Shown here piece after piece: positions 23,251-58,973 of a stretch of DNA of 64,000 nucleotides (its first letter is position 1; each line of letters starts with the position of its first letter). The position numbers and the translations under genes were made by a program. Origin of the DNA: Candidatus Latescibacterota bacterium (GTDB taxonomy: Bacteria > Latescibacterota > UBA2968 > GCA-2709665); assembly GCA_965219455.1 (NCBI GenBank), contig OZ244744.1, positions 4,736,001 through 4,800,000 of the forward strand. The letters run 5' to 3'. Below the pieces are notes generated by a model. That model was not told where the DNA came from. It did no database searches and saw only the letters and a program-made list of their open reading frames with translations.

Positions 23251-23252
23251 TG

Positions 23253-23593: not shown

Positions 23594-23961
23594 CCGCGTC
23601 GGCGCATCCGTCTGGAGACAGGATCAAGGAGACCCTTCGCAGGCGACAGGGTGAAATGCATGCGAGAATCTGCCCGGAATGTATATAAATACGGAAAAAG
23701 TAGATAAATACGTAAAATATTAATGATTGGATTAATATGAGTTAATAGTTATATTTTAAATTCTGCGTTTCGCGTGCCGGACGACAGGGCATTGTGATTC
23801 GTTGGTGAAGGGCTGACCAGCCAAATAAAGAGACCGTGGGTTGCCTGACCTGCCAGAGTCGAAAACCGACGGTTATCCAGGAAGGCGCACACCCTTTCTG
23901 TTCCTGGCGCTTTTGTTCCATGAGACAGGATGTGGCCCTCGTTCTGGAATATAGAGTTCCC
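23594..23961 (+). promoter_or_regulatory. Conserved 368-bp upstream leader, copy 1
   Basis: Near-identical at 32858-33225 and 47968-48335; AT-rich core followed by stem-loops. Confidence 0.8.
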
Positions 23962-24981
23962 ATGATGTCATTTCAAATGCAGCGACGGGCAATTGAGCGT
24001 TGTGCAACCCGACCGCGAACGAAATTACCTGCGACGAGGTTTTTCCGGCTCACATCCGGCATCGCGGGCCTATTGATCCTTTTGCTTCTGACGTCCCCGT
24101 GGTCGCCATCCACGCAGCCGGCCGGCTTTTCGCTCGCTCTGGACCTTGACGATGCCGCTGGCGACCAGGGCGTATCCTCTCTTGACGTCTCTCCCGACCA
24201 GGTGGTTTCCGTACAGATTTTAGGCACGGATATTCAGAATGCCAGCGGCATTTCCGTGCGCTTCCGATACGATGGGACCCAGGTTGCGTACGAAGGCTTC
24301 GACCTTGGCGAGGCGTTGCCCAATGCCAATGCGCTTGTCGAACAGGATTCGGATTCGGTCCGCATCGGGGTTTCGTCGTTGAGTGGATCGGCAACGGTGA
24401 ACGCGGGATTGATCGGCGCCGTGCATTTTCGCACCACGGCTTTGTTTTCAGATACGGAGATCTGGCTGGTAAGCGCGGAACTATCCCGGGGTGGGCAGCC
24501 GGAGACGATATCTCCCGCCCTCGGGGTCGCGCTGCAGGTGGCCGCGCCCGTTTCCCCGGACTTCGACGGCAACGGGCTTGTGGGTTTTTCCGACTTTGTG
24601 GCCTTTGCCGGCGCCTTCGGCGCCAGGAAGGGGGACGGGAAGTATGAGGCGGTGTACGATCTGAACACCGACGGCGGCATCGCCTTCGACGATTTCGTGA
24701 TTTTTGCTAAAGGCTTCGGCGATACAGTCAATCGCGCGCCCGCGTTTGGCGCCGCGCCTCCGGTCACGCGCTCAGTGGAAGAGAATACGCCGGCGGGCCA
24801 GCGCCTCGGCGATCCCGTCACCGCTACCGATGCTGATAACGACTCCCTCACGTACCGCCTGCGCGGCGTGCACGCGGACCGTTTTTTTCCATTGGCGCGG
24901 GCACGGGTCAGCTTGTCACAAAGGAGGGGATTGCCTACGACCACGAAGGCAGGGACGCGTATACCGTCACCGTGCGGGTGA
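23962..24981 (+). CDS. Modular surface protein 1, N-terminal part (signal, cohesin-like, dockerin-like); frameshifted at T7
   Basis: EF-hand pair DFDGNGLVGFSDF / DLNTDGGIAFDDF; homology to paralogues changes frame at 24882-24888. Confidence 0.8.
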   Translation: MMSFQMQRRAIERCATRPRTKLPATRFFRLTSGIAGLLILLLLTSPWSPSTQPAGFSLALDLDDAAGDQGVSSLDVSPDQVVSVQILGTDIQNASGISVRFRYDGTQVAYEGFDLGEALPNANALVEQDSDSVRIGVSSLSGSATVNAGLIGAVHFRTTALFSDTEIWLVSAELSRGGQPETISPALGVALQVAAPVSPDFDGNGLVGFSDFVAFAGAFGARKGDGKYEAVYDLNTDGGIAFDDFVIFAKGFGDTVNRAPAFGAAPPVTRSVEENTPAGQRLGDPVTATDADNDSLTYRLRGVHADRFFPLARARVSLSQRRGLPTTTKAGTRIPSPCG

Positions 24982-27911
24982 CCGACGGGCAGGGGGGCCG
25001 CGCCACGGTTGTGGTGGGTATCGCCGTGACCGACGTGGACGAACCCCCCTCCGGGCCGCCAGAGGGCGTGGTGGCGGCGCCTCGCGACACGGCATTGACG
25101 GTGACCTGGACAGCGGCGCCCGACGAGGCGGGCAAGCCTCCCGTGAGCGGATACGAGGTGACGCATCGGACCGGAGACGGCGGTGAATGGTTGGAAGGAC
25201 TGATCGTGGACAGCCGCACGGATACGAGCGCCATGCTGACCGGTCTGACCAACGAACAACTGTATCAGGTACGCGTGCGCACGTTGAACGACGAGGGCGC
25301 CAGTGAGTGGTCGATGACCGCATCTGGCGCGCCCACCGGGGGTCCGGAGGTGGTGGGTGTCATCCCCGACCAGAACCTGATCGTGGGCGGGTCCGCTGTC
25401 GGTGTAAACGTGGCAAACGCGTTTACCCGACCCGCGCAGGGGACGCTGAGCTACGCGGCGGCATCGTCTAATGACGCTGTTGCGACGGTGAGCGTGTTGG
25501 ATTCCATCGCCACGGTGCGCCCCGTGGGTGCGGGTCGCGCCACCATCACCGTGACTGCCGGCGACCAGTACGGCAACGCCGTGCAGACGGCCTTCTCCGC
25601 TGTCGTGACGCCACCGGCCCCACCACCGCCACCACCCCCGCCGCCAGGACCCATCGGGCCATTCCGGCCGCCACCGCCACGCCCGCCACCGCCGCCCCCG
25701 CCGGGTCCCAATCAGGCCCCGACCTTCGACGAGGGCCCGAGCGCCACCCGCAGCGTAGCTGAAAACACGGCGGCAGGTCAAAACATCCAGCATCCGGTGA
25801 GCGCCACCGATGCCGACCGTCACAGCCTGACCTATCGCCTCGGCGGGAACGATGCCGGTTCATTCGCCATCATCGCAAGCAACGGTCAGCTTCGCACCCG
25901 GGCGGGGGAGACCTACGACTACGAGACGAGGGTCAGCTATTCGGTGACGGTGGAAGCCGACGACCGCAACGGCGGCATTGCCGCCATTGACGTAACGATC
26001 CACGTGGCCGACTTCGACGAACCGCCCGAAGCTCCGGCGCGGCCCCGGGTCGAGCCGGCTTCTTCGACCAGCCTGACCGTGACCTGGACCGAGCCGGTCA
26101 ACATCGGTCCCGCCGTCGACGACTACGACGTGCAATATCGGACGGGCGCCGGCAGCTTCCTCCCCTGGCAACACAACACCGGCACGACCACGACGATAAC
26201 GAACCTGGAGGTGAACAAGCAGTACGAGGTACAGGTGCGTGCGACCAACGACGAAGGCACGGGTGCATGGTCCTCCTCGGGTTTCGGCGCCACCAGCGCC
26301 AATCAGCCGCCGGTGTTCGACGAGGGAGGCACCGCCACGCGTACCCTTGCCGAGAACACGCCCGGTGGCCACGACGTCGGCAACCCGGTAAGAGCGACCG
26401 ATCCCGAGGGCCGCGCGGTGACTTACAGCCTCTCCGGACGGGACGCAAGCGCGTTCACCCTCGACGAAGACAACGGTCAGCTGCGCACACGGAACAGCGT
26501 GGATTACAACTACGAGGTGAAAAATCGGTATGCGGTGACGGTGGAAGCAGCCGACGAGCAGGGCGGCCGCGCCACCATCGCGGTGACGATTGACGTAACT
26601 GATGACGACAACGAGCCGCCGGACAAACCCGATCCGCCCACAGTGTCGGCCTCGACGTTGACGAATCTGACCATAGGGTGGACAGAGCCGAGCAATACCG
26701 GTCCGCCCATCACCGATTACAATGTGCAATACCGTGAAGGGAGTAGCGGCGCCTTCACTTCCGTGTCACACGATGGCACGGGCAGGACCACGACGATTGC
26801 GAACCTGAAGTCGAACACCACCTATCAGATTCAGGTGCAGGCGACCAGTGATGAAGGCACGAGCCTGTGGTCGGATTCGGGCAATGGGACGACCATTGCC
26901 AACCAGGCGCCCACGTTCAGCGAAGGATCGAGCGCCACCCGCAGGTTGGCTGAGAACACGACGGGCACGCAGGACGTCGGCAATCCGGTAACCGCCACCG
27001 ACGGTGACGGCGGGACACTGCGCTACCTCCTTGGAGGCACGGACCAGTCCTCCTTCACTCTCGATGTGAACCAGCTTCAGACGGTAGCGGGCGAAACCTA
27101 CGACTACGAGGAGAAAAGCAGCTACGTCGTGACCGTGCGCGTAGAAGACGGTCAGGGCGGCAGCAATACCATCGAGGTGGCGATCAACCTGATAGACCAA
27201 CAGGAGCCGCCCGAGGCCCCGTCAGCACCCAGCGTCTCAGCGGCCTCATCAACCAGCCTGACCGTGACCTGGGATGAGCCGGCCAACACCGGTCCCGACA
27301 TCGGCGACTACGATGTGCAATACCGAGAAGGGGACAGCGGAAACTTTACCTCCTGGACACACAACAGCGCGGAACGCACCGCGACCATCACCGGTCGGAG
27401 CCCGGGCACGAGCTATGAGGTGCAGGTGCGAGCGCGCAACGACGAAGGCACGAGCGCCTGGTCCCCGTCGGGCACGGGAAGCACCGGCGCCAACCAGCCC
27501 CCGGTCTTCAACGAAGGATCGAGCGCCATCCGCCGCCTCGACGAGAACACCACGGGCGTGCAGGACGTCGGCGATCCGATAAGCGCCACCGACCCGGAGA
27601 ACACCCCCCTGACCTACGGCCTCGAAGGCACGGACAAAGATGCCTTCACCATTGACACGGGTAGTGGTCAACTTCGGACCAAATTGGATCAGACCTACGA
27701 TTACGAGACGAAGCCCCGCTATGTCCTGAGTGTCAAAGCAACCGACGGGCACGGCCGCGATCGCACCATCCTCGTGTTGATAAACCTGAACGACGTCAAC
27801 GAGCCGCCGGCGTTCACCAGCGACGCGGCTTTCGAGACGGTAGAAAATGCCACGACGGTCGGCGCAGCGGTCGCCCGTGATGAGGATAGTGCCGACAGCA
27901 TCATCGGCTAA
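24972..27911 (+). CDS. Modular surface protein 1, middle part (cadherin/FN3 repeats, poly-Pro)
   Basis: Cadherin motifs (ENT..G, ATDAD, YDYE, DVDEPP) alternate with FN3 motifs (LTVTW..P, Y.VQVRA.N.EG...WS); ends at an in-frame TAA. Confidence 0.85.
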   Translation: MRVTDGQGGRATVVVGIAVTDVDEPPSGPPEGVVAAPRDTALTVTWTAAPDEAGKPPVSGYEVTHRTGDGGEWLEGLIVDSRTDTSAMLTGLTNEQLYQVRVRTLNDEGASEWSMTASGAPTGGPEVVGVIPDQNLIVGGSAVGVNVANAFTRPAQGTLSYAAASSNDAVATVSVLDSIATVRPVGAGRATITVTAGDQYGNAVQTAFSAVVTPPAPPPPPPPPPGPIGPFRPPPPRPPPPPPPGPNQAPTFDEGPSATRSVAENTAAGQNIQHPVSATDADRHSLTYRLGGNDAGSFAIIASNGQLRTRAGETYDYETRVSYSVTVEADDRNGGIAAIDVTIHVADFDEPPEAPARPRVEPASSTSLTVTWTEPVNIGPAVDDYDVQYRTGAGSFLPWQHNTGTTTTITNLEVNKQYEVQVRATNDEGTGAWSSSGFGATSANQPPVFDEGGTATRTLAENTPGGHDVGNPVRATDPEGRAVTYSLSGRDASAFTLDEDNGQLRTRNSVDYNYEVKNRYAVTVEAADEQGGRATIAVTIDVTDDDNEPPDKPDPPTVSASTLTNLTIGWTEPSNTGPPITDYNVQYREGSSGAFTSVSHDGTGRTTTIANLKSNTTYQIQVQATSDEGTSLWSDSGNGTTIANQAPTFSEGSSATRRLAENTTGTQDVGNPVTATDGDGGTLRYLLGGTDQSSFTLDVNQLQTVAGETYDYEEKSSYVVTVRVEDGQGGSNTIEVAINLIDQQEPPEAPSAPSVSAASSTSLTVTWDEPANTGPDIGDYDVQYREGDSGNFTSWTHNSAERTATITGRSPGTSYEVQVRARNDEGTSAWSPSGTGSTGANQPPVFNEGSSAIRRLDENTTGVQDVGDPISATDPENTPLTYGLEGTDKDAFTIDTGSGQLRTKLDQTYDYETKPRYVLSVKATDGHGRDRTILVLINLNDVNEPPAFTSDAAFETVENATTVGAAVARDEDSADSIIG

Positions 27912-27965
27912 ACCCTCACCGGAGGCACCGACCGCGACCGGTTCGAGATCGACAGCGCAGGCGCG

Positions 27966-30305
27966 TTGACCTTCAAAGATGCTCCCAACTTCGAGGATCC
28001 CGCGGACAATGGCAGAAATAACTCATACATCGTGGTGGTCACAGCGACCGGCGGCGCGGGAGGCCGCGCCCTGACCGTAGCGCAGACGATCACCGTCACC
28101 GTCACCGACGTGAACGAACCGCCGGTCTTCACCAGTGACAATTCCCTGCAGGTCAAGGAAAACATCCGTTTTGTCGGCCCGGTAGTCGCCGAGGATGTCG
28201 ATAGTGGCGATGGCATCACCGGCTACGCGATCACCGGCGGAGCCGACGGGAGCCGCTTCGAGATCGCCGGCACGAACCAGTTGCGCTTCAAGGACGCCCC
28301 CGACTTCGAGCGTCCGGCGGATGCGGGGGGCGACAACGAAAACATCGTGGAGGTCACGGCGACCGGCGGCGCCGGGACCCGGGAGATGACGGGAACGCAG
28401 ACGATCACCGTCACCGTGGAGGACGTCGACGAACCGCCGGGCAGGCCTGATCCGGCGACGGTGAGCAACGAGACGGAAAACAGCATCACCGTGACCTGGA
28501 CCGAGCCGGCCAACACCGGGCCCGACGTCACCAATTACCATGTGCAATACCGCGACAGCGGCGCCTTCACCGATTGGCCGGACACCGGCCCGTCCCTGAC
28601 CCGCACGCTCACCGGCCTGCGCTCGGGCAGCACCTACCAGATCCGGGTACAGGCGGAGAACGACGAAGGGAAGGGTGCGTGGTCCAATTCGGCCAACGGG
28701 ACGACGCTCACCGGGCCGTCGCCAACTATAACTTTACTTCGAGGTCCCTATCTGCAGAGCGGGACGTCGTCGAGCGTCATCATCAAGTGGCGAACGGACG
28801 ACGCGACCGATAGCGTTGTGCGGTACGGCCTCGACCCGAACAGCTTGACGCTGTCGGCATCGAACGCCACCTCCACAACCGAGCACGCAGTGCAGCTCAC
28901 GGGCTTGTCCGCCGACGTCAAGTACTTCTATTCCGTGGGCACCTCATCGGTCACGCTGGCTGGCGGAGACAGCGATCATTTCGTCGTCACTGCTCCCGTC
29001 CCCGGGACGGCGAAGCCGACGCGAATCTGGGTCATCGGAGATTCCGGCACCGCCAACAGGAATGCCAGAGCCGTCCGGGATGCCTTTCTAAATTTCACGG
29101 GGTCGCGCGACCCGGACCTCTGGATCATGTTGGGCGACAACGCCTATGACGACGGAACCGACAATGAGTACCGGAAGGCGGTTTTCAATACCTACCCGCA
29201 GGTGCTGCCCAGGACCGTGCTCTGGCCGACGCTCGGAAACCATGACGGCCGCACAGCCGACTCAACCACCGAAAGTGGTCCCTATTACGAGATCTTTTCG
29301 CTCCCTCGCAACGGCGAAGCCGGCGGAGTCGCCTCAGGGACGGAAGCCTATTACTCCTTCGACTACGGGAATATGCATTTCATCTGCCTGGATTCCAAGA
29401 AAACCGACCGCTCGGCGGACGGGGCGATGATGACCTGGCTGGAAGCGGATTTAGCGGCGAACGACAGGGAATGGGTCATCGCGTTCTGGCACCACCCCCC
29501 CTATTCCAAGGGATCGGCCGACTCCGACGAGCAATGGGGCTCGATTCTCCTGCGGCAGAACGCCGTGCCCATTCTCGAGCGGTACGGCGTCGATCTGGTG
29601 CTCACCGGGCATAGTCACTCCTACGAGCGTTCCTATCTTATTGATGGCCATTACGAGCTGTCCGACACCTTTACCGACGCCATGGAGAAGAATCCCGGCG
29701 ACGGCAGCGCAACAGGCGATGGGGCCTATCAGAAGCCCGTGGCGGTTGGCGCGCCGCACGCCGGCGCCGTGTACGTAGTAGCCGGGACCGCGGGCCTCGT
29801 CAAACCAGGAGGGTCGCTGGACCACCCGGCGATGGCCGTTTCGATCAGGACTCTGGGGTCAATGGTGCTCGACGTGAACGGGCGCCGTCTTGACGCCATA
29901 TTCCTGGATAGTACCGGGAACATCCGGGACGACTTCACGATCCTGAAGGTCCCTGATACGATCTCGCCGCAGATTTCGTCGGTGCAAGCGCAAGGCACGC
30001 CCACCCAAGCGGTCGTCACTTTTTCCGAGTACGTTGAACAAGCCAGCGCCGAGACAGCCTCGAACTACGCCATCGACAACGGCGTGACCGTCAGTGCGGC
30101 CGGCCTGGGAGACGACGGCAGAACGGTGACTCTGACCACGACGCCCCTTACCCAGGGGATTACCTACACCCTTACGGTCAATAACGTTGTTGACCTGGCC
30201 GGCAATCCTATCGCTACCGATTCGCAGGAGCAGTTTCAGTACAACAACATCACGGGTTCTATTCAAGACGGAGTTGCGCCCACAGCGGGCTACGGGGAGC
30301 CTTAG
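27966..30305 (+). CDS. Modular surface protein 1, C-terminal part: cadherin, FN3, purple-acid-phosphatase-like metallophosphoesterase, Ig-like
   Basis: GDSG, GDNAY, GNHD and GHSH metallophosphoesterase motifs; in frame with the upstream ORF. Confidence 0.85.
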   Translation: MTFKDAPNFEDPADNGRNNSYIVVVTATGGAGGRALTVAQTITVTVTDVNEPPVFTSDNSLQVKENIRFVGPVVAEDVDSGDGITGYAITGGADGSRFEIAGTNQLRFKDAPDFERPADAGGDNENIVEVTATGGAGTREMTGTQTITVTVEDVDEPPGRPDPATVSNETENSITVTWTEPANTGPDVTNYHVQYRDSGAFTDWPDTGPSLTRTLTGLRSGSTYQIRVQAENDEGKGAWSNSANGTTLTGPSPTITLLRGPYLQSGTSSSVIIKWRTDDATDSVVRYGLDPNSLTLSASNATSTTEHAVQLTGLSADVKYFYSVGTSSVTLAGGDSDHFVVTAPVPGTAKPTRIWVIGDSGTANRNARAVRDAFLNFTGSRDPDLWIMLGDNAYDDGTDNEYRKAVFNTYPQVLPRTVLWPTLGNHDGRTADSTTESGPYYEIFSLPRNGEAGGVASGTEAYYSFDYGNMHFICLDSKKTDRSADGAMMTWLEADLAANDREWVIAFWHHPPYSKGSADSDEQWGSILLRQNAVPILERYGVDLVLTGHSHSYERSYLIDGHYELSDTFTDAMEKNPGDGSATGDGAYQKPVAVGAPHAGAVYVVAGTAGLVKPGGSLDHPAMAVSIRTLGSMVLDVNGRRLDAIFLDSTGNIRDDFTILKVPDTISPQISSVQAQGTPTQAVVTFSEYVEQASAETASNYAIDNGVTVSAAGLGDDGRTVTLTTTPLTQGITYTLTVNNVVDLAGNPIATDSQEQFQYNNITGSIQDGVAPTAGYGEP

Positions 30306-30309
30306 CTGA

Positions 30310-30880
30310 TTGGTTGCGATTACGGTGGGCGTTCGAGGGTATCGCCGCGCTGCTGAAAGACCCGATCAAGGGTTCCACACCACCGCAGCCGTCACCGTCG
30401 ATATCGGATTCTTGCCGCCACTGCCCTCAGACTATTTCGGATACATGTTGGTCAAATCCGCGGACTTGCCGCTGGAAGCAATTGCTGCCGAAGCCGTAAC
30501 GGTCTATCCGACGAGGCTCAGCCTGCCCGAAGACGGCAGCAACACCTGCTCGGTTGTGCTGAACGTGCAGCCAACCGCAGACGACGTGCAGGTCACTGTT
30601 CTGGAGATGCCCGACAATGCCAATGCCCCGCCGGTTTTCACCAGTGAATCCACCTTCGAGGTTGACGAAAACGAAACCATGGCCGGCACGGTAATCGCCA
30701 CGGATGCCGACGTCAGGGACTACGTCACCGGCTACGCGTTAACCGGCGGCGACGACCAGGCGCTGTTCTCAGTCAGCCGCCTGGGCGCTTTGACCTTCGA
30801 TGGAAATGGCGCGGGCGAGTGGTCTCCCTCCGCCGAGGCGACGCCCAGCAACAGGAGACCGACAGGGGAGAGCCTTTTCG
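30310..30880 (+). pseudogene. Decayed mosaic of surface-protein modules
   Basis: 'AAVTVDIG.LP.LPS...GY.LVKS.DLPLE', 'PVFTS...ENET..GTV.ATDAD.RD.VTGY' and 'EWSPS.EAT' match non-contiguous parts of protein 2. Confidence 0.7.
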
Positions 30881-31005
30881 CACCCGACGATCTGGTGGCT
30901 ACAGCCGGGGGCGCCGTCCCTGCGGTGTGCTGCTATGCGGATGTCGTGCCGCGCGTGGTCAGTTGTAAACCGTTCACTCGCCTTCACACGCCTTTCATGC
31001 TTCGC

Positions 31006-32553
31006 TCAGGCCTGTACGACCTCGAAAGCGGTAATATTGCGGGTGTTTTTACTGAACTCCACGGCTATCAGGTGGATTGGCTGGTTCAGGCTTCTATATT
31101 TGTCCGCGTATCCCTTTTCTTTTAATTGCGCCATCGCCGCCCCTTCTGATGCCATTTCAACCACTTTGAACTCGAACAGATAGACGTTGGCGTTGAAATG
31201 AACGGCCATGTCCAGACGCCCATGGCTGCTGCTGTCCTCCAGGGTGACGTCAAGCCCCAGTCCCGCGAAATAAGAGTAGAATACGCTGGCGTAGTAGCCC
31301 TCAAAATTGGCGATATCGTTGTTGGTGTACCATTCGTATGGGATGCTGGCAAAGAAGGCGTGGAAAAGGATTTCGAGGCCGGCGAAGTTTTTGGCTTCCA
31401 GCAGGCGATACAGATGCACGGTGTTCGCCATAAGACGCGTCGAGTCCTTCACCAGGTAGCGCAGCAGGCTCTCGTTGAGGCTCTGGCGCACTTCCCGATT
31501 GGGATAGCTCAGGCGATAGAGAAACTTGCCACCGAGGTTCTCGCCCTCTGTTATCGTGAGGTATCCGGTCTGGAATAAGAGTGCCTCAGTCGCTATGTGG
31601 TCAACGTCGAAGGCGGACAACAACTCGTCGCTGCCGATCATGTTATTGAGTTCAAGTGAACTGACGTGGCGTTTGAACAGGGTTTCGATGAGGAACGTGG
31701 GGGTGCCGGTCTCGAACCAGTAGGCGCCGAAGGTGCGCTTGTCGAAGAGCAGGAGGATGTCGAAAGGGTTGTACACCTTTTCGTCGCCCAGCCAACTATA
31801 GCCATTATACCAGCCGCGGATCTCGTCTCGATCCAGGCCGGGCAGTTCCGGCGCGAATACGGTGTCGAGGTCCGTCTCGGTGTAGCCACAGATAGCAGAG
31901 TAGCGCGGGTCAATGGTGATGTCGGTGAGGTTGTTGAGGCCGGAGAAGAGGCGAACTTTGGAAAATTTGCTGACGCCCGTTAGAAAGGCAAATTGGACGT
32001 GCGCGTCGCAGTCTTTGATGGTGGCGTACAGGCCGCGCAAATAGTCGCGGTTAGCGCGGGCAATCTCCGGGACTTCAAGCGCGTCCAGGATCGGTTTGTC
32101 GTATTCGTCAATGAGAACCGCCACGCGCCGTCCGGCTTGCACGTGAAGGATTTCCAATAGAGACGCAAAGCGTCCGGGAGCCGTTGCGTACTCGGAAACG
32201 ATCCCCGCTCGACGTTCAATGGCGGCGAGTTGTTCCATGAGGTTTGCCTGCAAGTAGCCCGGCTCACTGAAGTTGCCGCTGCCAAAACTGAGGCGCAGCA
32301 CGGGATGGGGCGCTTGCCAATCCCAGTGGTCATAGATGTCTAATCCCTCAAATAGCGTCTCGTTTCCTTCAAACAGTTCCTTCAAGGTGTCCAGAAACAG
32401 GCTCTTGCCAAAGCGACGCGGCCGCGACAGGAAGTAGTGCGTACCCTCGTTGAGCAGTTCCCGGATATAGGCCGTCTTATCGACGTAGTAGTAGTTCTGC
32501 TCCCGAATCTTGCGGAAGGTCTGAATGCCGATGGGCAGTCTGCGTTTGAGCAT
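31006..32553 (-). CDS. AAA-ATPase-like protein with C-terminal PD-(D/E)XK nuclease domain
   Basis: 'LPIGIQTF', 'YYVDKT', 'RPRRFGKS', 'LIDEYDKP', 'GRLDM....YLFEFK'. Confidence 0.92.
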   Translation of the reverse strand: MLKRRLPIGIQTFRKIREQNYYYVDKTAYIRELLNEGTHYFLSRPRRFGKSLFLDTLKELFEGNETLFEGLDIYDHWDWQAPHPVLRLSFGSGNFSEPGYLQANLMEQLAAIERRAGIVSEYATAPGRFASLLEILHVQAGRRVAVLIDEYDKPILDALEVPEIARANRDYLRGLYATIKDCDAHVQFAFLTGVSKFSKVRLFSGLNNLTDITIDPRYSAICGYTETDLDTVFAPELPGLDRDEIRGWYNGYSWLGDEKVYNPFDILLLFDKRTFGAYWFETGTPTFLIETLFKRHVSSLELNNMIGSDELLSAFDVDHIATEALLFQTGYLTITEGENLGGKFLYRLSYPNREVRQSLNESLLRYLVKDSTRLMANTVHLYRLLEAKNFAGLEILFHAFFASIPYEWYTNNDIANFEGYYASVFYSYFAGLGLDVTLEDSSSHGRLDMAVHFNANVYLFEFKVVEMASEGAAMAQLKEKGYADKYRSLNQPIHLIAVEFSKNTRNITAFEVVQA

Positions 32554-32857
32554 GCTTCCTCCCGGGGGCGATCTCCTCAAGGTCCACCACGAGACTGGAT
32601 CCGCCAATGTTCCGAAGATTATTCGCTCTTCTGTAATAAAATTACTTGAAATCGGATGAACTCCTTAGCGCAAGATACGCAATGCCCGGCCCGATCGCAA
32701 ACCACACCTGATAAAGGCAAGACGTTTGAGAATGCAAGCGGTACTGTTCATTTTTTCGTTGTCGCCGTCCACGCAGCCAGGCTGCCATTCCTCGGCCCGG
32801 GGGTTTCTGACGATAACCCTTCTACACCCTCGATGTCACTCGCGCCTGGCCTGAGAT

Positions 32858-33225
32858 CCGCGACGGCGCATCCGTCTGGAGACAGGATCAAGGAGACCCT
32901 TCGCAGGCGACAGGGTGAAATGCATGCGAAAATCTGCCCGGATTGTATATAAAATCAGAAAAAATAGACAAATGCGTAAAATATTAATGATTGGATTAAG
33001 ATGTGTTAATAGTTATATTTTAAATTCTGCGTTTCGCGTGCCGGACGACAGGGCATTGTGATTCGTTGGTGAAGGGCTGACCAGCCAAATAACAAGACCG
33101 TGGGTTGCCTGACCTGCCAGAGTCGAAAACCGACGGTCCTCCAGGAAGGCGCACACCCTTTCTGTTCCTGGCGCTGTTGTTCCATGAGACAGGATGTGGC
33201 CCTCGTTCTGGAATATAGAGTTCCC
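32858..33225 (+). promoter_or_regulatory. Conserved 368-bp upstream leader, copy 2
   Basis: Matches 23594-23961. Confidence 0.8.
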
Positions 33226-36200
33226 ATGATGTCATTTCAAAAGCAGCGACGGGGAATCGAGCGTCTTGAAACCCGAAGACGAACGAAATTTCCCGAGACC
33301 AGGTTTTTTCGGCTCACAGTCGGCGCCGCCGGCCTGATGTGCATGGCGCTGTTCATTTCCCCGTGGTCGTCGTCGACGCAGCCGTCCGGCTTTTCGCTCG
33401 CGCTGGACCTGGACGATGCCGGTGGCGACCAGGCGGTATCCTCGCTCGATGTCTCTCCCGAACAGGTTTTTCCTATACAGATTTTCGCGATGGATATTCA
33501 GAATGCCGCGGGCATATCCATGCGCTTCGGATACGATGGGACCCAGGTTACGTACGAGGGATTCGATCCCGGCGAGGCCCTGCCGAGCGCCCATGCCATC
33601 GTACAGCAGGATTCCACTTTCATCGGCATCGGCTTATCGTCGTTGAGCGGATCGGCAACGGTGAACACCGGCCTTGTCGGCACGGTGCGTCTTCGCACCA
33701 GCGCCGCCTTTTCGGACACGGAGGTGTGGCTGGTGCACGCCGAGCTTGCCCGGGACGGAGAGACCGAGGCAATATCGCCCGCCCTCGGCGTCGCGCTGCA
33801 GGTCACGGCACTCCCTTCGCCCGACTTCGACGGCAATGGGCAGGTGGGGTTCTCGGACTTCGTGGCCTTTGCCGGCGCCTTCGGGGCGCGCCTTGGCGAC
33901 GGGAAATACGTGGCGGCGTACGATCTGAACAACGACGGCGGTATCGGCTTCGACGACTTTGTAATCTTCGCCTTGAGTTTCGGCGAAGCTGCCAACCGGG
34001 CGCCCGCGTTCGCCGCCTCGCCTCCGGTGACGCGCTCTCTGGCGGAGAACACCCCGGCGGGCCGGCCCATCGGCGATCCCGTCATCGCCGCGGATGCCGA
34101 TGGCGACGCCATCACGTATGGCCTGCGCGGGATGCACGCGGACCGCTTTTCCATTGGCGCGGGCACAGGGCAGTTGCTGACAAAGGAAGGAATTGCCTAC
34201 GACCACGAGGCCAGGGACAGGTATTCCGTGACCGTGCGCGCCAGTGACGGGCAGGGTGGCCGCGCCACCGTTGTGGTGGGCATCGCCGTGACCGACGTGG
34301 ACGAGCCGCCCGGCGCGCCGCCAGAGGGGGTGGCGGTGGCGCCTCGCGACACGGCATTGACGGTGACCTGGACAGCGGCGCCCGACGAGGCGGGCAAGCC
34401 TCCCGTGAGCGGGTACGAGGCGGCGCATCGGGCGGCAGACGCCGAGGCATGGCAGGAGGGGCTGTTGGTGGAGAGCCGCACGGATACCGGCGTCACGATA
34501 GGCGGTCTGACCAACGAACAGCCGTATCAGGTACGCGTGCGCACGTTGAACGACGAGGGCGCCAGTGAGTGGTCGATGACCGCATCTGGCGCGCCCACCG
34601 GGGGTCCGGAGGTGGTGGGTGTCATCCCCGACCAGAACCTGATCGTGGGCGGGTCCGCTGTCGGTGTAAACGTGGCAAACGCGTTTACCCGACCCGCGCA
34701 GGGGACGCTGAGCTATGCGGCGGCATCGTCTAATGACGCTGTTGCGACGGTGAGCGTGTCGGATTCCATCGCGACGGTGCGCCCCGTGGCCGTGGGGCGC
34801 GCGACCGTCACCGCGACGGCCAGCGACCTGTGGGGCAACGGCGCGCGGACCACCTTCGACGTTGTCGTGACGACAGCGCCGCCACCACCCCCGCCGCCAC
34901 CACCCCCGCCCCCTCCTCCTCCGCGACGGCCTCCTCCTCCACGACCGCCGCCACCGCCGCCCCCGCCGGGTCCCAATCAGGCCCCGACCTTCGACGAGGG
35001 CCCGAGCGCCACCCGCAGCGTAGCTGAAAACACGGCGGCAGGTCAAAACATCCAGCATCCGGTCCGCGCCACCGATGCCGACGGTCACCGCCTGACCTAT
35101 AGCCTCAGCGGAACTGATGCCAATTCATTCACCATCGACACCAACGACGGTCAGCTTCGCACCCGGGCGGGGGCGACCTACGACTACGAGGTCAAGAATC
35201 GTTATTCGGTAACCGTGGAAGCCGACGACCGCAACGGCGGCACGGCCACGATTGGCGTCGCCATCCACGTGGCCGACGTCGAGGAACCGCCAGGGAGGCC
35301 GTCTGCCCCGAGGGTTGAGGCCGCTTCTTCAACCAGCCTGACCGTGACTTGGACCGAGCCGGCCAACACCGGCCCCGATGTCTACGACTACGACGTGCAG
35401 TACCGCAAGAGCGGCAGCTTCCTCCCCTGGCCGCACGACGGCCCCGGTACCACTACCACGATCCCGGACCTGGAGGTCAACACCCGTTACGAGGTGCAGG
35501 TGCGGGCGCACAACGACGAAGGCACGGGCGAGTGGTCATCCTCAGGCCGCGGCGCCACCAGTGCCAACCAACCGCCGGTGTTCGACGAGGGAGGCACCGC
35601 CACGCGTACCCTTGCCGAGAACACGCCCGGTGGCCACGACATCGGCAACCCGGTAAGAGCGACCGATCCCGAGGGCCGCGCGGTGACTTACAGCCTCTCC
35701 GGACGGGACGCAAGCGCGTTCACCCTCGACGAAGACAACGGTCAGCTGCGCACACGGAACGGCGTGGATTACAACTACGAGGTGAAAAATCGGTATGCGG
35801 TGACGGTGGAAGCAGCCGACGAGCAGGGGGGCCGCGCCACCATCACCGTGACGATCGACTTGGTCGATGACGACAACGAGCGGCCGGAAAGACCCGACCG
35901 ACCAACAGTAACGGCCTCGACGCTGACGAGTCTGACCATACGGTGGACAGAGCCAGCCAACCCTGGCCCGCCCATCACCGATTACAATGTGCAATACCGC
36001 GAAGGCAGCAGCGGCGCCTTCACTGCCGTGGCACACGATGGCACGGGCAGGACGACGACGATTGCGAACCTGAAGTCGGACACCCCGTATCAGATTCAGG
36101 TACAGGCGACCAGTGACGAGGGCACGAGCGAGTGGTCGCCATCGGGTAACGGGCGGACCGTCGCCAACCAGGCCCCCACGTTCAACGAGGGCGCGAGCAC

Positions 36201-37176: not shown

Positions 37177-37230
37177 ACCCTCACCGGAGGCACCGACCGC
37201 GACCGGTTCGAGATCGACAGCGCAGGCGCG

Positions 37231-51300: not shown

Positions 51301-52625
51301 GGGAGGGGTACGGCCTGCTGCGGGTCATGGACCCGGACGAGCGGCCCCACCCGCGCGATGTGGTGATCTACGAGGCCCTGCCCAACGAGTTGCCCCGCGT
51401 GGCCGGCATCGTCAGCACCGTGCTCCAAACGCCGCTGTCACATGTCAACCTGCGCGCCATTCAGGACGGCATCCCCAATTCCTTCATCGCCGACGCGCTC
51501 GACAACAGCTCTATCAACACTCTCATCGGCGGCTACGTCCGCTACACGGTGACGGATAGAGGCTGGAGCCTGCGCGCTGCCACGCCCGCAGAAGTCGATG
51601 CCCACTACGAGTCTTCCCGGCCCGCCCATGAACAGATCCCGCAACGGGACCTCGATGTCACCAAAATCACGCCGCTCAGTGAGATCGGCTTCGATGACTG
51701 GGACGCGTTCGGCGTCAAGGCGGCCAACGTGGCGGTGCTGGGGACGCTGGGGTTTCCGGAGGGGACCGTGCCCGACGGCTTCGCGATTCCGTTCTATTTC
51801 TACGACGAGTTCATGAAGCACAACGGGTTCTACACCCGCATTGAAACCATGCTGGCGGACGAAGCTTTCCAGACGGACTTCGAAGCCCAGGCGGACTCAC
51901 TCAAGAAGCTGCGCAAGGCCATCGAAGACGCGGAGACGCCGGATTGGATCGTCTCGGCAATCGAGACAATGAATGAGTCTTTCTCCGAGGGGATCAACCG
52001 CCGCTACCGGTCCAGCACCAACAACGAGGACCTGCCCGGGTTCAACGGCGCGGGGCTGTACGACTCCAAGAGCCAGAAGCCGAGCGAGGACGAGAAGGAT
52101 CTCGCCAAGTCCCTCAAGGAGGTGTACGCCGGTCTGTGGAACTTCCGCGCCTTCGTCGAACGCGACTTCCATCACATCGACCACCTGGCGGCGGCGATGG
52201 GGGTGCTGGTGCATCCCAGCTACAGGGACGAACTGGCCAACGGCGTGGCCGTCAGCTTCGACCCCATCTACGGCAGAGACAGACGCTACTACGTCAACAC
52301 GCAGGTCGGCGAGGATCTGGTCACCAATCCCGACGCGCACTCGGTGCCGGAGGAAGTCCTGTTGAACCCGCCTTCTGTTTCTCTCCCTTACACCGTCCTT
52401 GGGACCTCCAACCAGGTGCCGCCGGGGCAACTCCTCATGAGCCGTGACCAAATGCGCCAGTTGAGAGAACATCTCGAGGTGATCCACGAGGAGTTCGCGG
52501 AGCTGTACGACCCCGCACCCGGTGAACCGTTCGCCATGGAGATCGAGTTCAAGATCACCAGCGACAACATCCTGGCGATCAAGCAGGCGCGTCCCTGGGT
52601 CTTCGGCGCCCAGGTCGATGAGTGA
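48336..52625 (+). CDS. Modular surface protein 4 (intact): shared N-terminus plus PEP-utilizer-like His-swivel and PEP/pyruvate-binding ATP-grasp domains
   Basis: 'TPLSHVNLRA', 'GVKAANV', 'VPDGFAIP', 'RSSTNNEDLPGFNGAGLYDS', 'MEIEFK', 'KQARP'. Confidence 0.85.
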   Translation: MMSFQMQRRGIERLEARRRTKFPETGFFRLALGVAGLVWLALFISPWSSSTQPSGFSLALDLDDAAGDQAVSSLDVSPEQVFPIQIFAMDIQNAAGISMRFGYDGTQVSYEGFDPGEALPDANALVEEDSTSVRIDVSSLSGSATVNAGWIGTVRFRTTAMFSDTEIWLVHAELARGEQEEAISPALGVALQVTALPSSDFDGNGQVGFSDFLAFGDAYGSRHGDETYRAKYDLNGDGGIGFDDLLIFAERFGDAVNRAPVFVAAPPVTRSLEENTSAGQPIGDPVIATDADEDSLTYSLRGAYVDRFSIGAGTGQLLTRDGVAYDHEASDAYSLTVRVSDGQGGRAVVAVGIRVTDVDEPPGAPGGVAVTPRNSALLVSWNAAPDEAGRPPVSGYEVTHRRGDAGDWQEALMLEGRGDTSVTITRLNNERTHQARVRSFNDEGASPWSEPVAGAPTAGPKVARGIPDQSLYTGGGNGRVNLAVAFTRPGGRPLSYAAASSDSTIAAVSVSDSMATLRPVAGGRVTVTATASDVWGNGAQTTFNVVVTSGPPPPPRPPPQPPSPPPPRRPPPPRPPPGPNQAPTFNDGSSTSRSVAENTLANQNVQHPVSATDADRHPLTYRLGGNDAGSFAINASNGQLRTRAGATYDYEVKNRYSVTVEADDRNGGAATIGVAIHSWPHDGPGTTTTIPDLEVNTRYEVQVRAHNDEGESEWSASGFGRICSEGDAPTPVEVTVTAVPIVVASTTDEYFVLYVRHDVDGATVEVPVLVKRGEAGTTALAENVAALPKERYRVEKYLVADPADVDGDCIDDLTELDTVGMNPVNPAAAIALTEGALAIPDLETFETLSLYGFVKFIVVGIDTHQPGIYFANTKTYEQHADFREALGFEWYEAIDGGFEYDPDLVAPDGNPGVYYYYLEPSYSFSLAARFYTVCAASMPLLEDNLAYHIRNYQLPHFQSDLPLFSESRIPLVFEEDIRRETTFLALNPGEGYGLLRVMDPDERPHPRDVVIYEALPNELPRVAGIVSTVLQTPLSHVNLRAIQDGIPNSFIADALDNSSINTLIGGYVRYTVTDRGWSLRAATPAEVDAHYESSRPAHEQIPQRDLDVTKITPLSEIGFDDWDAFGVKAANVAVLGTLGFPEGTVPDGFAIPFYFYDEFMKHNGFYTRIETMLADEAFQTDFEAQADSLKKLRKAIEDAETPDWIVSAIETMNESFSEGINRRYRSSTNNEDLPGFNGAGLYDSKSQKPSEDEKDLAKSLKEVYAGLWNFRAFVERDFHHIDHLAAAMGVLVHPSYRDELANGVAVSFDPIYGRDRRYYVNTQVGEDLVTNPDAHSVPEEVLLNPPSVSLPYTVLGTSNQVPPGQLLMSRDQMRQLREHLEVIHEEFAELYDPAPGEPFAMEIEFKITSDNILAIKQARPWVFGAQVDE

Positions 52626-52720
52626 TTCCGGCGGTGAGAGAGGCCAGCGGTGCGAAGGGCACGGCGGGCGGGAGCCGAAAGCAGGCGTGCCCGGGCCCGC
52701 CGCGACGCGGGCATCTCCGT

Positions 52721-52748
52721 GTAGGGGCGACCGGCCGGTCGCCCCTAC
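52721..52748. repeat. Perfect 28-bp GTAG-type REP palindrome
   Basis: GTAGGGGCGACCGGCCGGTCGCCCCTAC. Confidence 0.85.
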
Positions 52749-52777
52749 GCCATGAAGGCTGAACCAGGTATTGATAG

Positions 52778-54184
52778 ATGAAAATCTACTCTGGGTTTTT
52801 TCCCCTCGCGTTCGGCATCGCGTGCCTGGTGTGGCTGGTGCTGTTCATTTCCCCGTGGTCGTCGTCGACGCAGCCGTCCGGCTTTTCGCTCGCGCTGGAC
52901 CTGGACGATGCCGCGGGCGACCAGGCCGTATCCTCGCTTGACCTCATACCCGATCAGTCCTTTTCCATACAGATTTTCGGCAGTGATATTCAGAATACCC
53001 GCGGCATATCCATGCGCTTCCGATACGATGGGACCCAGGTTTCGTACGAAGGCTTCGACCCCGGCGAGGCGCTGCCCGATGCCAATGCGCTTGTCGAAGA
53101 GGATTCGACGTCGGTCCGGATCGATGTTTCGTCGCTGAGCGGGTCGGCAACGGTGAACGCGGGTTGGATCGGCACGGTTCGTTTTCGCACCACGGCCTTG
53201 TTTTCGGATACGGAGATCTGGTTGGTACACGCAGAACTTTCCCGGGGCGGAGGGTCCGAGGCAATATCGCCCGCCCTCGGTGTCGCGCTACAGGTCACCG
53301 CGCCGCCGTCCCCCGACTTCGACGGCAACGGGCTTGTGGGTTTTTCCGACTTTGTGGCCTTTAGCGACGCATACGGTTCCCGGCCTGGCGATGAAAACTA
53401 CAGCGCGAAGTACGACCTGAACGGCGACGGCAGCATCGGCTTCGACGACCTGCTGATCTTCGCCGAGCGTTTCGGCGATGCGGTCAACCGCGCGCCGGTC
53501 TTCGTCGCTGCGCCCCCGGTCACGCGCTCACTGGAAGAGAATACTTCGGCTGGCCAGCCCATCGGCAACCCGGTCATCGCTACCGACGCGGATGAAGATT
53601 CCCTTACGTACAGCCTGCGCGGCGCGTATGCGGACCGTTTTTCCATTGGCGCGGGCACGGGTCAGCTTCTCACCAGGGACGGCGTGGCCTACGACCACGA
53701 AGCGGGGGAGGCATATTCGCTAACCGTGCGGGTCAGCGACGGGCAGGGGGGCCGCGCCGGCGTTGGGGTGGGCATAGAGGTGACCGACGTGGACGAGCCC
53801 CCCGGCGCGCCCGGGGGCGTGGCGGTGATACCGCGCAACAGCGCCCTGCTGGTAAGCTGGAACGCGGCGCCCGACGAGGCGGGCAGGCCCCCGGTAAGCG
53901 GATACGAGGTGACGCACCGGAGGGGGGATGCCGGCAACTGGCAGGAAGCGCTGATGCTGGACGGCCGCGGGGATACCAGCGTGACGATCACGCGTCTGAA
54001 CAACGAACGCATCCACCAGGCGCGCGTGCGCAGTTTCAACGATGAGGGCGCAAGCCCGTGGTCGGAGCCCGTGGTCGGAGCCCGTGGTCGGAGCCCGTTG
54101 CGGGGGCGCCCACGGCGGGGCCGCAAGTGGCGCGCGGCATCCCGGACCAGAGTCTCTACACGGGCGGGGGTAACGGTCGCGTGA
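52778..54184 (+). CDS. Modular surface protein 5, N-terminal part; frameshifted by 13-bp tandem repeat
   Basis: Cohesin-like, dockerin-like, cadherin, FN3; homology changes frame at 54053-54098. Confidence 0.8.
   Translation: MKIYSGFFPLAFGIACLVWLVLFISPWSSSTQPSGFSLALDLDDAAGDQAVSSLDLIPDQSFSIQIFGSDIQNTRGISMRFRYDGTQVSYEGFDPGEALPDANALVEEDSTSVRIDVSSLSGSATVNAGWIGTVRFRTTALFSDTEIWLVHAELSRGGGSEAISPALGVALQVTAPPSPDFDGNGLVGFSDFVAFSDAYGSRPGDENYSAKYDLNGDGSIGFDDLLIFAERFGDAVNRAPVFVAAPPVTRSLEENTSAGQPIGNPVIATDADEDSLTYSLRGAYADRFSIGAGTGQLLTRDGVAYDHEAGEAYSLTVRVSDGQGGRAGVGVGIEVTDVDEPPGAPGGVAVIPRNSALLVSWNAAPDEAGRPPVSGYEVTHRRGDAGNWQEALMLDGRGDTSVTITRLNNERIHQARVRSFNDEGASPWSEPVVGARGRSPLRGRPRRGRKWRAASRTRVSTRAGVTVA
54053..54098 (+). 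repeat. 13-bp tandem repeat (AGCCCGTGGTCGG) x3.5
   Basis: Single unit at the equivalent position of protein 4. Confidence 0.9.
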
Positions 54185-56043
54185 ACCTGGCCATCGCGTT
54201 CACCCGTCCGGGCGGGAGGCCGCTGAGTTACGCCGCGGCATCGTCCGACAGCACCATCGCGGCCGTGAGCGTGTCGGATTCGATGGCGACGTTGCTCCCG
54301 GTGGCCGGGGGGCGCGTCACCATCACCGCGACGGCCAGCGACGTGTGGGGCAACGGCGCGAAGACGACGTTTAACGTTGTGGTGACATCGGGGCCGCCGC
54401 CCCCGGCGCGTCCGCCGCCGCCGCCGTCACCACCTCCGCCGCGACGGCCTCCTCCTCCACGACCGCCGCCGCCGCGACCTCCACCGGGTCCTAATCAGGC
54501 GCCAACCTTCAACGAAGGTGTGAGCACCTCGCGCAGCGTGGCCGAGAACACCCGACCGAACCAGGACATCCAGCACCCGGTCAGCGCCACCGATGGTGAC
54601 GGTCACCGCCTGACCTACCGTCTCAGCGGGGACGATGCCGGTTCCTTCGCCATTATCTCAAGCAACGGCCAGCTTCGCACCCGGTCGGGCGTTACGTACA
54701 ACCACGAGGACAAGGACCGCTATGAAGTCACCGTGGAAGCCGACGACCGCAACGGGGGCGCGGCCACGATTGGCGTCACCATCCACGTGGCCGACGTCGA
54801 GGAACCGCCGGAAGCGCCGGCCCGGCCCCGGGTCGAGGCAGCTTCGTCCACCAGCCTGACCGTGACCTGGACCGAGCCGGTTAACACCGGACCCCAGGTC
54901 GACGACTACGACGTGCAGTATCGGACGGGCAGCGGCAACTTTATCCCCTGGCCGCACAACAGCGCGGACCTGACCGCAACCATCACCAACCTGACCCCGG
55001 GCGCGAGCTATGAGGTACGGGTGCGCGCAACAAACGACGAAGGCACGGGCGAATGGTCGCCATCGGGCGTGGGGACGACACATGGCCGACTCATCAGCGT
55101 CTGCGATCGCGTGCCGCCGATACGCGAAGCGATCGTGAACGCGATTCCCGGCGTGGATGCGTGCGGAGACGTGTCGGCGAGCCATCTGGCGTCGATTGTG
55201 GCGCTGGACGTGAGACACAAGGATGCAACGGGACTGGATGCCGACGACTTTGCCGGTCTGACGGGCATGGAGGACCTCGTGTTGGAGCACGTCGATATAG
55301 GGGTGTTGCCCAACGCGGTCTTTTCCGGTCTGATCTCCCTGAAAAAGATCAAGATATACGACGCCTTTCTGAGCGAATTGAATGCCGGTATCTTTGCCGG
55401 CCTGCCAGCGCTCGAAACCCTCGACTTGCGCGCCAACTTCCTGACCACCTTGCCCGCAGGCGTATTTTCCACGCTGCCGAGCCTGAAGACAATCTCTCTG
55501 TGGGGCAACAGGTTGAGTTCCGTGGATGTCCGTGCTTTTTCGGGGCTGCCTGCGCTACGGAACCTCTCCCTGGCCGGCAACCAATTCAGCACCCTTCCTG
55601 AGAATGTGTTTTCCAATCTGCCGGCGCTGGAAAAGCTCTACCTGTCTTACAACCAATTCAGCACCTTGCCAGAGGGCGTATTTTCCGGGTTGGAAACCCT
55701 GAAACAACTCGATCTGGTTGGCAATCCCGTCGATCCCTTGCCTATTATGGTGTCGCTGGAACGCGCCGGTGCGGGCCAATTCAAGGCCAAAGCGCACACC
55801 GGCGCGCCCTTTGATATCGTTTTGCCGATCAGTGTCGCCAACGGCGCCATTGACGGTGGGACGAGCAATATCACGATCCATCGAGGCCGGGTCGAAAGCG
55901 ACGTCCTCAGGGTATCTCATACCGCTGGCGCAACTTCGGCCGTAAGCGTAGATATCGAACGGTTGCCTGCACTGCCACAATTCCATCAAGGCTATACTCT
56001 CGTCAAGTCCACTGCTGACTTGCCGCTGGTCGTTTTGGAATGA
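54058..56043 (+). CDS. Modular surface protein 5, C-terminal part (Ig, poly-Pro, cadherin, FN3, LRR)
   Basis: Cys cap 'CDRVPPIREAIV...C', ~24-aa LRRs, post-LRR domain homologous to protein 2. Confidence 0.85.
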   Translation: MVGARGRSPWSEPVAGAPTAGPQVARGIPDQSLYTGGGNGRVNLAIAFTRPGGRPLSYAAASSDSTIAAVSVSDSMATLLPVAGGRVTITATASDVWGNGAKTTFNVVVTSGPPPPARPPPPPSPPPPRRPPPPRPPPPRPPPGPNQAPTFNEGVSTSRSVAENTRPNQDIQHPVSATDGDGHRLTYRLSGDDAGSFAIISSNGQLRTRSGVTYNHEDKDRYEVTVEADDRNGGAATIGVTIHVADVEEPPEAPARPRVEAASSTSLTVTWTEPVNTGPQVDDYDVQYRTGSGNFIPWPHNSADLTATITNLTPGASYEVRVRATNDEGTGEWSPSGVGTTHGRLISVCDRVPPIREAIVNAIPGVDACGDVSASHLASIVALDVRHKDATGLDADDFAGLTGMEDLVLEHVDIGVLPNAVFSGLISLKKIKIYDAFLSELNAGIFAGLPALETLDLRANFLTTLPAGVFSTLPSLKTISLWGNRLSSVDVRAFSGLPALRNLSLAGNQFSTLPENVFSNLPALEKLYLSYNQFSTLPEGVFSGLETLKQLDLVGNPVDPLPIMVSLERAGAGQFKAKAHTGAPFDIVLPISVANGAIDGGTSNITIHRGRVESDVLRVSHTAGATSAVSVDIERLPALPQFHQGYTLVKSTADLPLVVLE

Positions 56044-56941: not shown

Positions 56942-56994
56942 TGGGGTTTCTCCGGTTGGCGCGGGTGACAAAAGCAATCAGCGAACAGCTGTCA

Positions 56995-58973
<1,979 letters not shown>

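Follow-up and report, generated by a model that had tools for sequence, protein, structure and literature searches.

An array of genes for proteins headed by a predicted cohesin-dockerin dyad in a Latescibacterota genome, and its proposed place in non-cellulolytic surface display

Cohesin and dockerin are the well-understood glue of cellulosomes, and outside cellulose degradation the pair has mostly been a bioinformatic curiosity. What might it be doing at the head of a row of long proteins in an uncultured phylum? The question is posed by a stretch of 64,000 nucleotides (the window) from Candidatus Latescibacterota bacterium (contig OZ244744.1, positions 4,736,001 to 4,800,000), in which open reading frame (ORF) maps place five paralogous genes (g1 to g5) and one stub on the plus strand between 23.9 and 56.0 kb. 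Coordinates are those of the window unless marked G000, the source genome, which is a single contig of 5.84 Mb. An earlier note on this DNA had described such an array and proposed that its proteins, each with a cohesin and a dockerin in tandem, chain into a Ca2+-dependent surface polymer; the gene starts and ends that it gave agree with the ORF maps, and the stub is real. We argue here for a hierarchical, non-cellulolytic display of anchor, adaptor and cargo in which the cohesin-dockerin dyad is one element, a reading to which we assign a probability of roughly 0.55. The array itself is young, recombining and built by segmental duplication.

The predicted head and the parts that follow it

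All five genes share a start composed of a basic stretch and then a hydrophobic stretch of ~20 residues, an N-terminus that on inspection is signal-peptide-like, of the Sec type. In order, this is followed by a beta domain of ~142 residues, a double EF-hand of ~62 residues, and cadherin-like, fibronectin type III (FN3), immunoglobulin-like (Ig-like) and poly-Pro parts. Aligned as proteins, the five heads are 75-80% identical to one another, far beyond chance. The stalk families found by Pfam are Cadherin, fn3 and Big_2/Big_9, and poly-Pro runs were read directly from the translations; the common stalk of cadherin, FN3, Ig and poly-Pro described for these proteins agrees with both.

To assign the two head domains, the g2 head was modelled with AlphaFold2 (AF2) from 33 aligned sequences (mean pLDDT 87.8, pTM 0.69), which gave 11 strands in residues 8-144 and helices at 160-169 and 193-202. 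A Foldseek search of the PDB with this model returned cohesin-containing chains on top, with the first non-cohesin entry at rank 32: the leading rows were 3kcp and 4fl4, both CipA CohI9-X-DocII chains, single cohesins came next with TM scores of 0.6-0.74 on the target, and the non-cellulosomal cohesin 2xdh of Archaeoglobus fulgidus stood at rank 16. The model and the fold search thus both place the first domain in the nine-stranded beta-sandwich fold of cohesins. The second domain matched the solved dockerin 2y3n_B with E 3.3e-6 from one sequence and 1.9e-10 from a profile. Its repeats, DFDGNGxVGFSD and DLNxDGxIxFDD, are present in all five heads and form two complete Ca-loop EF-hands, by what we take to be the canonical Ca-loop pattern, with a helix after each, as in the two ~22-residue repeats of a type I dockerin. 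Modelling and sequence matches therefore point to a head made of a cohesin-fold domain and a two-repeat dockerin, as the array's first description had named it.

Relatives of the head were sought among 1.84 billion representative proteins, with 3039 matches at E<=1e-3 and 135 at E<=1e-30. In 120 of the best 150 homologues there is one cohesin and one dockerin (90 N-terminal, 16 C-terminal and 14 internal); ten have two cohesins and a dockerin, and isolated cases show three, four or seven cohesins ahead of a single dockerin. The original proposal's premise of a cohesin and a dockerin that normally occupy different chains is thus too simple, as the head relatives run from two to seven cohesins followed by one dockerin; classical scaffoldins, too, carry both on one chain. 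Every one of the 31 genomes of the order that we searched has the head, matching 1-40 times and often in clusters. Pfam was run on 49 relatives, the first batch of the 73 among the best 150 that are 600-2300 residues long. What the head carries in them is very varied: leucine-rich repeats (LRR) in 16, CARDB in 13, LDL-receptor class B propellers in 9, WD40 in 5, Peptidase_M8 in 3, Calx-beta in 2, and one each of an FGE-sulfatase and a pectate-lyase-like domain, with cadherin and fn3 frequent. Pfam Cohesin exceeded its cut-off in 6 of these 49, as it did, at 36.9-37.8 bits, in paralogues 46-48% identical to the window heads, and two relatives (P0049 and P0094) scored 27.3 and 34.8 bits for Dockerin_1 against a cut-off of 22.9. 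Because PDB chains with an X module and a dockerin matched the dockerin part, we also considered a type II X-module-dockerin dyad; this was rejected, since the fold search groups the first domain with cohesins and Pfam Cohesin matches the paralogues.

Beyond the stalk, the five proteins diverge. The g1 end matched Metallophos (67.5 bits) and Pur_ac_phosph_N, and what we take to be metallophosphoesterase motifs are readable in its translation. The g2 end matched LRR_8 (217 bits) and Peptidase_M8 (46.6 bits), with the HExxH motif present as HEIGH; g3 ends in CARDB (37.2 bits), g4 in PPDK_N (86 bits), with a weak NCBIfam likeness to phosphoenolpyruvate synthase and rifampicin phosphotransferase, and g5 in LRR_8 (124.8 bits). 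The list of ends that had been read from the sequence (phosphatase, LRR and protease, CARDB, dikinase-like module, LRR) stands in these respects; its Calx-beta domain in g3 had no Pfam match at E<=0.01, and the Ig domain there is represented by Ig_3 and fn3_6 matches under the Pfam cut-offs. In contigs of three metagenome runs, the part of g4 at 51425-52586 has a summed depth of 1470-8104 against ~20-400 elsewhere, an excess of 10-40x, so that those samples must be rich in a near-identical module carried by other genes or organisms. The source genome holds one full copy and one partial copy of the dikinase-like module.

Cohesins and dockerins across the genome

To see the array heads in their genomic setting, hidden Markov models built from the head alignment were run on all stop-to-stop ORFs. 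Dockerins were found in 111 ORFs, at the C-terminus in 58, just past the N-terminus in 30 and internally in the others. Only 14 ORFs have a head-type cohesin, and ~98 dockerin ORFs lack one. A cargo scan of 17 dockerin ORFs, hand-picked to cover the gene clusters, found 10 with WD40, 3 with LRR, 1 subtilase, 1 with a matrixin and a lactonase propeller, 1 with a cohesin and a sorting domain, and 1 without a family. None of these 17 is a glycoside hydrolase, and multi-cohesin proteins occur only in the relatives, with none in the window; on both counts the picture departs from that of a cellulosome. Two tandem clusters consist of ORFs of ~700 residues with a C-terminal dockerin (about eleven at G000 4388577-4415050 and about six at G000 3702895-3716885), and the one member scanned from each is a WD40 propeller.

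Six small ORFs are of a different build. Each has ~240 mature residues arranged as signal peptide, cohesin and a type A sorting domain of a type IX secretion system (T9SS), and they are 60-88% identical to one another. The sorting domain scored 33-41 bits for TIGR04183 against a cut-off of 23; Pfam Cohesin was over its cut-off in one (30.6 bits) and slightly under in two. Five of the six directly adjoin cohesin-dockerin genes at other loci. By their sequence, these six proteins are candidate outer-membrane anchors. A PorU-like ORF scored under its cut-off (213 against 420 bits).

Three features together suggest a hierarchical assembly: the series of relatives with a varying number of cohesins and one dockerin, the sorting-domain cohesins beside cohesin-dockerin genes, and the excess of plugs (dockerins) over sockets (cohesins). 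In such an assembly, the Ca2+-binding dockerin of the head would plug into a cohesin, most likely that of a small T9SS-sorted protein on the outer membrane, and the head cohesin would receive a further protein with a dockerin, be it cargo or a second head. In the window proteins the adaptor would be fused to a long stalk and distal module of its own, and the stalk would keep that variable module away from the cell. What the analysis shows is which domains are present and in how many copies, where the genes are disrupted, and how duplication and recombination shaped the array; all binding steps, passage through the outer membrane and any activity directed at a host are inferred.

Several observations weigh against this reading. 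The window heads themselves fall under the Pfam cut-offs, both for Cohesin (18.5 against 24.1 bits in g4, with no match at E<=0.01 in the main scan) and for Dockerin_1 (19.4 against 22.9 bits in g5), and the cargo sample is non-random and covers 17 of 111 ORFs. There is no anchor gene in the window, where none of the 22 TIGR04183 matches of the genome lies; a direct scan of the last part of g1, the second part of g2, g3 and g4 likewise found no TIGR04183 domain. The five array proteins thus have no T9SS sorting domain that would account for their passage across the outer membrane. Head and cargo dockerins have one common consensus with two near-symmetrical repeats, so that on this ground chaining of head to head is as likely as docking of head to anchor; two specificity classes of dockerin, one for heads and one for cargo, were looked for and are not visible in the consensus sequences. 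A complex prediction with two copies of the head, which scored 0.00 against a mark of 0.42, carries no weight in either direction. Finally, three of the five genes are interrupted, and part of the array may therefore be dead.

The common dockerin consensus also bears on the polymer that had first been proposed for these proteins, in which successive heads are joined in trans, dockerin to cohesin, into a mixed, Ca2+-dependent filament either attached to the cell or free of it. Such a chain would be suited by subunits that each have a single socket and a single plug, and by head dockerins that match the consensus of all other dockerins of the genome and have near-symmetrical repeats. Relatives with several cohesins and one dockerin resemble classical scaffoldins, however, in which the dockerin of a chain targets a different cohesin. 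Dedicated anchor-type cohesins adjoin cohesin-dockerin genes at five other loci, and the ~98 dockerin ORFs without a head-type cohesin would compete for the sockets. A precedent for self-binding is Amy4 of Ruminococcus bromii, whose cohesin is reported to bind its own dockerin, with multimers proposed (PMC4611034). Weighing these points, we consider a self-polymer unlikely and hold to the hierarchical display.

History and present state of the array

Features of the array and its surroundings are collected in Table 1. A self-comparison of the window resolved two duplications. The first pairs 23594-28718 with 32858-37989 at 87.7% identity; the second pairs 31013-35268 with 46122-50366 at 83.9% and spans the minus-strand AAA/PDDEXK_9 gene, a leader and a head. 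A high-copy mobile element was considered as the identity of this AAA-ATPase/PD-(D/E)XK gene and ruled out, because the genome holds only three copies, the third at G000 360474-362003. The orphan frame behind g1 (271 codons) is 57% identical to g2 over 89 residues and 52% over 95 residues by BLASTP. Together with the head stub behind g3, which stops where the second AAA gene has its 3' end, it indicates that newer 3' parts and duplicated units displaced older pieces.

Table 1. Positions of the array genes, their parts and associated elements (window numbering, except where marked G000)
Feature	Position	Strand	Content and basis
Left bracketing direct repeat	21850-23268		PhyH gene and ~0.7 kb (BLASTN, Pfam)
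Leader, ~130 nt	23832-23961 (g1), 33096-33225 (g2), 48206-48335 (g4)	+	runs up to the start codon
g1	23962-30305	+	head, stalk, purple-acid-phosphatase-like module 28755-29624, Big_5 29991-30236; two interruptions
g1 head	24121-24738	+	predicted cohesin-fold domain 24121-24546, dockerin 24547-24738 (head alignment, local HMMs)
Orphan remnant of a g2-like gene	30310-31122	+	post-LRR region and cadherin-like domain; starts right after the g1 stop
AAA-ATPase_like and PDDEXK_9 gene, first copy	31006-32607	-	Pfam; co-duplicated with the head unit
g2	33226-42576	+	head, long stalk, LRR ~38743-39810, leishmanolysin-like peptidase 41884-42423; one in-frame TAA 37174-37176
g2 head	33385-34002	+	predicted cohesin-fold domain 33385-33810, dockerin 33811-34002 (AF2, Foldseek, PDB sequence matches)
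g3, intact	42802-45924	+	head 42901-43518, cadherin, FN3, Ig, poly-Pro, CARDB 44527-44847, repeated beta-sandwich tail
Stub	45995-46099	+	decayed head fragment, first ~30 residues of the cohesin domain; truncated at the end of the AAA gene
AAA-ATPase_like and PDDEXK_9 gene, second copy	46118-47695	-	Pfam; 81% protein identity to the first copy
g4, intact	48336-52625	+	head 48495-49112, stalk, unassigned region, PPDK_N dikinase-like module 51708-52598
g5	52778-56043	+	head 52877-53494, stalk, LRR ~55294-55701; frameshift at 54053-54091
Right bracketing direct repeat	56240-62865		split by group II intron 57021-58973 and by DDE transposase segment 59417-60898 with its neighbour
Six small cohesin-T9SS ORFs (candidate anchors)	G000 703519-704343, 709001-709825, 3775111-3776028, 5268556-5269398, 5322676-5323608, 5660311-5661243		

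The array is bracketed by a direct repeat whose left and right copies were matched by BLASTN in three parts: 21850-22598 with 56240-56989 (94.7%), 22629-22945 with 58986-59302 (98.7%), and 22940-23268 with 62560-62865 (88-89%). The intron that splits the right copy was assigned to group II by Rfam and by RVT_1/GIIM. In the two closest relatives examined, whose protein for the flanking gene matches at 94% and 90% identity, the syntenic site has a single PhyH gene and only short head remnants; the array is absent from both and thus specific to the source species or strain. The earlier note would have given up its proposal had the C-termini been fixed by locus across strains; this check favours the note, as the locus itself is unconserved in these two genomes. 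On its left the array adjoins minus-strand genes with DUF4238 and HEPN domains (19090-21362), and in one relative (G013) head and Ig/poly-Pro fragments are scattered among the counterparts of this segment.

The leader that precedes three of the array genes is 92-96% identical between them, exceeding the head coding sequence; between g1 and g2, the upstream 370 bp are 94-96% identical and the head coding part 74-81%. A nhmmer profile found 15 copies in the genome, among them G000 1338906-1339038, 5327583-5327715 and 5655982-5656114 outside the window. Six of the 15 stand directly ahead of dockerin or cohesin-dockerin ORFs, and others precede genes that in turn precede such ORFs. No Rfam family matched the leader at the gathering score, its RNAalifold consensus structure is weak (-19.5, which does not improve on the -23.9 of the reverse strand), and by eye its spacing does not fit what we take to be the sigma-54 motif. 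Judged by sequence and position, the element may be a promoter or leader that the genes of a surface-protein regulon share.

The intact genes are g3 (1040 codons) and g4 (1429 codons); g1, g2 and g5 are interrupted. The reading frame of g1 shifts in a T7 tract (24882-24888) whose counterpart in g2 is C and four T. Both g1 (27909-27911) and g2 (37174-37176) have an in-frame TAA at the same spot in the middle of a cadherin-like domain, which aligns with Tyr in an uninterrupted paralogue of 3115 residues elsewhere in the genome and also with Tyr in the other copies of the motif within g2. A block of ~850 bp around the TAA is 100% identical between the two genes, against 74-98% over the rest of both, so that the shared stop was moved from one of the two to the other by very recent gene conversion. 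In g5, the frameshift coincides with a 13-nt unit present three times at 54053-54091 and once in g3 and g4. The dN/dS ratio of the heads is 0.13-0.47 in all ten pairs, broken genes included, which argues that the family is under purifying selection and that the breaks are recent; that long frames remain open past the breaks argues for their recency as well. Positive selection on the head was considered and is ruled out by the same ratios. The g1 and g5 frameshifts both lie in repeat tracts, and such tracts can alter their length by slippage. Among the differences listed for assembled contigs there is no indel at 54053-54091 and no substitution at 37174-37176, with cover of these sites unverifiable. 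Nor is a tract-length variant listed at 24882-24888 or 54053-54091, although assembled contigs cannot reveal rare variants.

Public sequencing runs gave a weak hint of habitat. Of the sampled words of 44500-54300, 44-72% recur in the contigs of three runs, each from a different study. The run matches are short assembled contigs (listed pieces of 38-431 nt, from four runs), and their depth is unusable for expression. One RNA library, labelled 'sponge metagenome', matches the tail of g3 and the AAA gene in pieces 175, 191 and 214 nt long that show 0-2 differences, and matches g4 in shorter ones. DNA can occur in RNA libraries, and we take these matches as a weak hint of a sponge habitat and of transcription of g3 and g4. 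Where contigs seem to join repeated FN3 and cadherin parts (37390 to 50112 is one case), foreign letters separate the two sides, and these joints were set aside as paralogues or other organisms.

These data bear on a reading in which the array is a by-product of duplication in a region rich in mobile elements, heading for loss and with little or no function as a unit. Such decay would account for the three interrupted genes, the orphan fragments between genes, the lack of an array in the two closest relatives examined, which have nothing but head remnants at the syntenic site, and the group II intron and transposase beside it. It sits badly with two genes intact over their full length, with the constraint on the heads and with frames still open past recent breaks. 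The contigs from the RNA library, which match g3 and g4 with 0-2 differences, lean the same way as a weak hint of transcription, and both frameshift tracts might, speculatively, change length. We consider decay less likely again than a self-polymer. Least probable is a clasp in cis, in which the dockerin folds onto the cohesin of its own chain and the dyad serves as a stable cap or is auto-inhibited, instead of linking molecules. In its favour, cohesin and dockerin invariably stand next to each other, ~5 residues separating the last cohesin strand from the first Ca loop, and the pair is intact at N-terminal, internal or C-terminal positions in 120 of the 150 best relatives. Across so short a linker, however, the dockerin would hardly reach the sheet with which its own cohesin would usually bind a dockerin; relatives with several cohesins have a surplus of sockets; and a pTM of 0.69 gives no clear sign of fixed interdomain packing.

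The array shows diversification close to the act, by duplication, gene conversion, replacement of 3' ends that leaves orphans, and rapid gain and loss between species. Joined to the hierarchical display, it allows a wider picture that we offer as possible and frankly speculative: a T9SS-anchored cohesin-dockerin plug-board that would mount eukaryote-like proteins (WD40, LRR, cadherin/FN3 and YWTD propellers) and some enzymes, with the heads as chainable adaptors and with arrays such as this one re-tooling the coat by swaps of 3' cassettes, perhaps also by on/off switching at repeat tracts (T7, 13-nt x3). Were this so, and were the lineage sponge-dwelling, it would provide a concrete mechanism for the display of eukaryote-like proteins by symbionts, a connection that none of the papers searched draws; if the habitat hint is right, the system bears on how sponge-associated bacteria present such proteins. 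With more than 100 dockerins, in the scanned sample mostly on binding-repeat proteins, and with T9SS-tagged cohesins and dyad-headed giants in one closed genome, the system is a compact, testable case of non-enzymatic surface display in an uncultured phylum.

Comparison with known systems

Our search of the literature found no work linking Latescibacterota to cohesin-dockerin systems. For sponge-associated members of the phylum, LRR, WD40, FN3 and NHL proteins have been listed, and dockerin and cohesin go unmentioned, supplements aside (PMC12993501).

The clostridial adaptor and primary scaffoldins, such as CipA of Clostridium thermocellum, resemble the array heads in having one or more cohesins and a Ca2+-binding double EF-hand dockerin on one secreted chain, and head relatives in which 2-7 cohesins precede one dockerin recall CipA, in which cohesins are followed by a C-terminal X-dockerin. 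The heads differ from CipA in having a single cohesin, no X module and no carbohydrate-binding module (CBM), and in standing N-terminally on a long adhesin-like protein with a distal end of its own. Relative to the clostridial cellulosomes, the system also belongs to a different phylum, and 0 of 17 scanned dockerin ORFs are glycoside hydrolases. Amy4 of R. bromii is likewise an enzyme that carries both modules, and its cohesin is described as binding dockerins of other proteins in addition to its own; there a GH13 amylase bears the modules C-terminally and their binding was measured (PMC4611034), whereas here it is proposed.

Closer in its anchoring is Candidatus Stygibacter (Cloacimonadota), for which a cellulosome-like complex with a scaffoldin bearing a C-terminal domain (CTD) has been proposed (PMC8542988). 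In both uncultured lineages, cohesin proteins with a T9SS-type CTD are the proposed surface anchors for dockerin-tagged secreted proteins. As described there, one large multi-cohesin scaffoldin with CBMs gathers dockerin-tagged hydrolases (PMC8542988); here the candidate anchors are small and have a single cohesin, the scanned cargo is mostly of WD40, LRR and cadherin type, and dyads head giant proteins. Non-cellulosomal cohesin and dockerin proteins are also described in anaerobic methanotrophic (ANME) archaea (PMC9012536). These, and the A. fulgidus cohesin 2xdh, are alike in placing the modules outside cellulose degradation on variable multidomain extracellular proteins, and they differ in lineage, cargo and anchor, which in archaea has an S-layer context.

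Two further comparisons concern architecture. With polymorphic toxins such as Rhs and CdiA, the array shares a constant N-terminal part, variable C-terminal parts and orphans left by recombination. The likeness drawn by the earlier note holds for this layout, as does its remark that no immunity-like genes follow, there being no ORF in the g2-g3 (226 nt) and g4-g5 (153 nt) gaps; it does not extend to the ends, which in Pfam are ordinary enzyme or repeat domains with no toxin domain among them, and the orphans here are stalk and head pieces. Fibrillar adhesins are similar in architecture, not as a sequence family, in that each long gene has stretches of 4-5 Cadherin and 4 fn3 domains and a distal functional domain; their covalent anchor (LPXTG or similar) is not seen in the array proteins. 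The system is thus of a known kind, that of the non-cellulosomal cohesin-dockerin proteins, and what is new in it is the N-terminal dyad on giant proteins, the history of recombination and the gene breaks.

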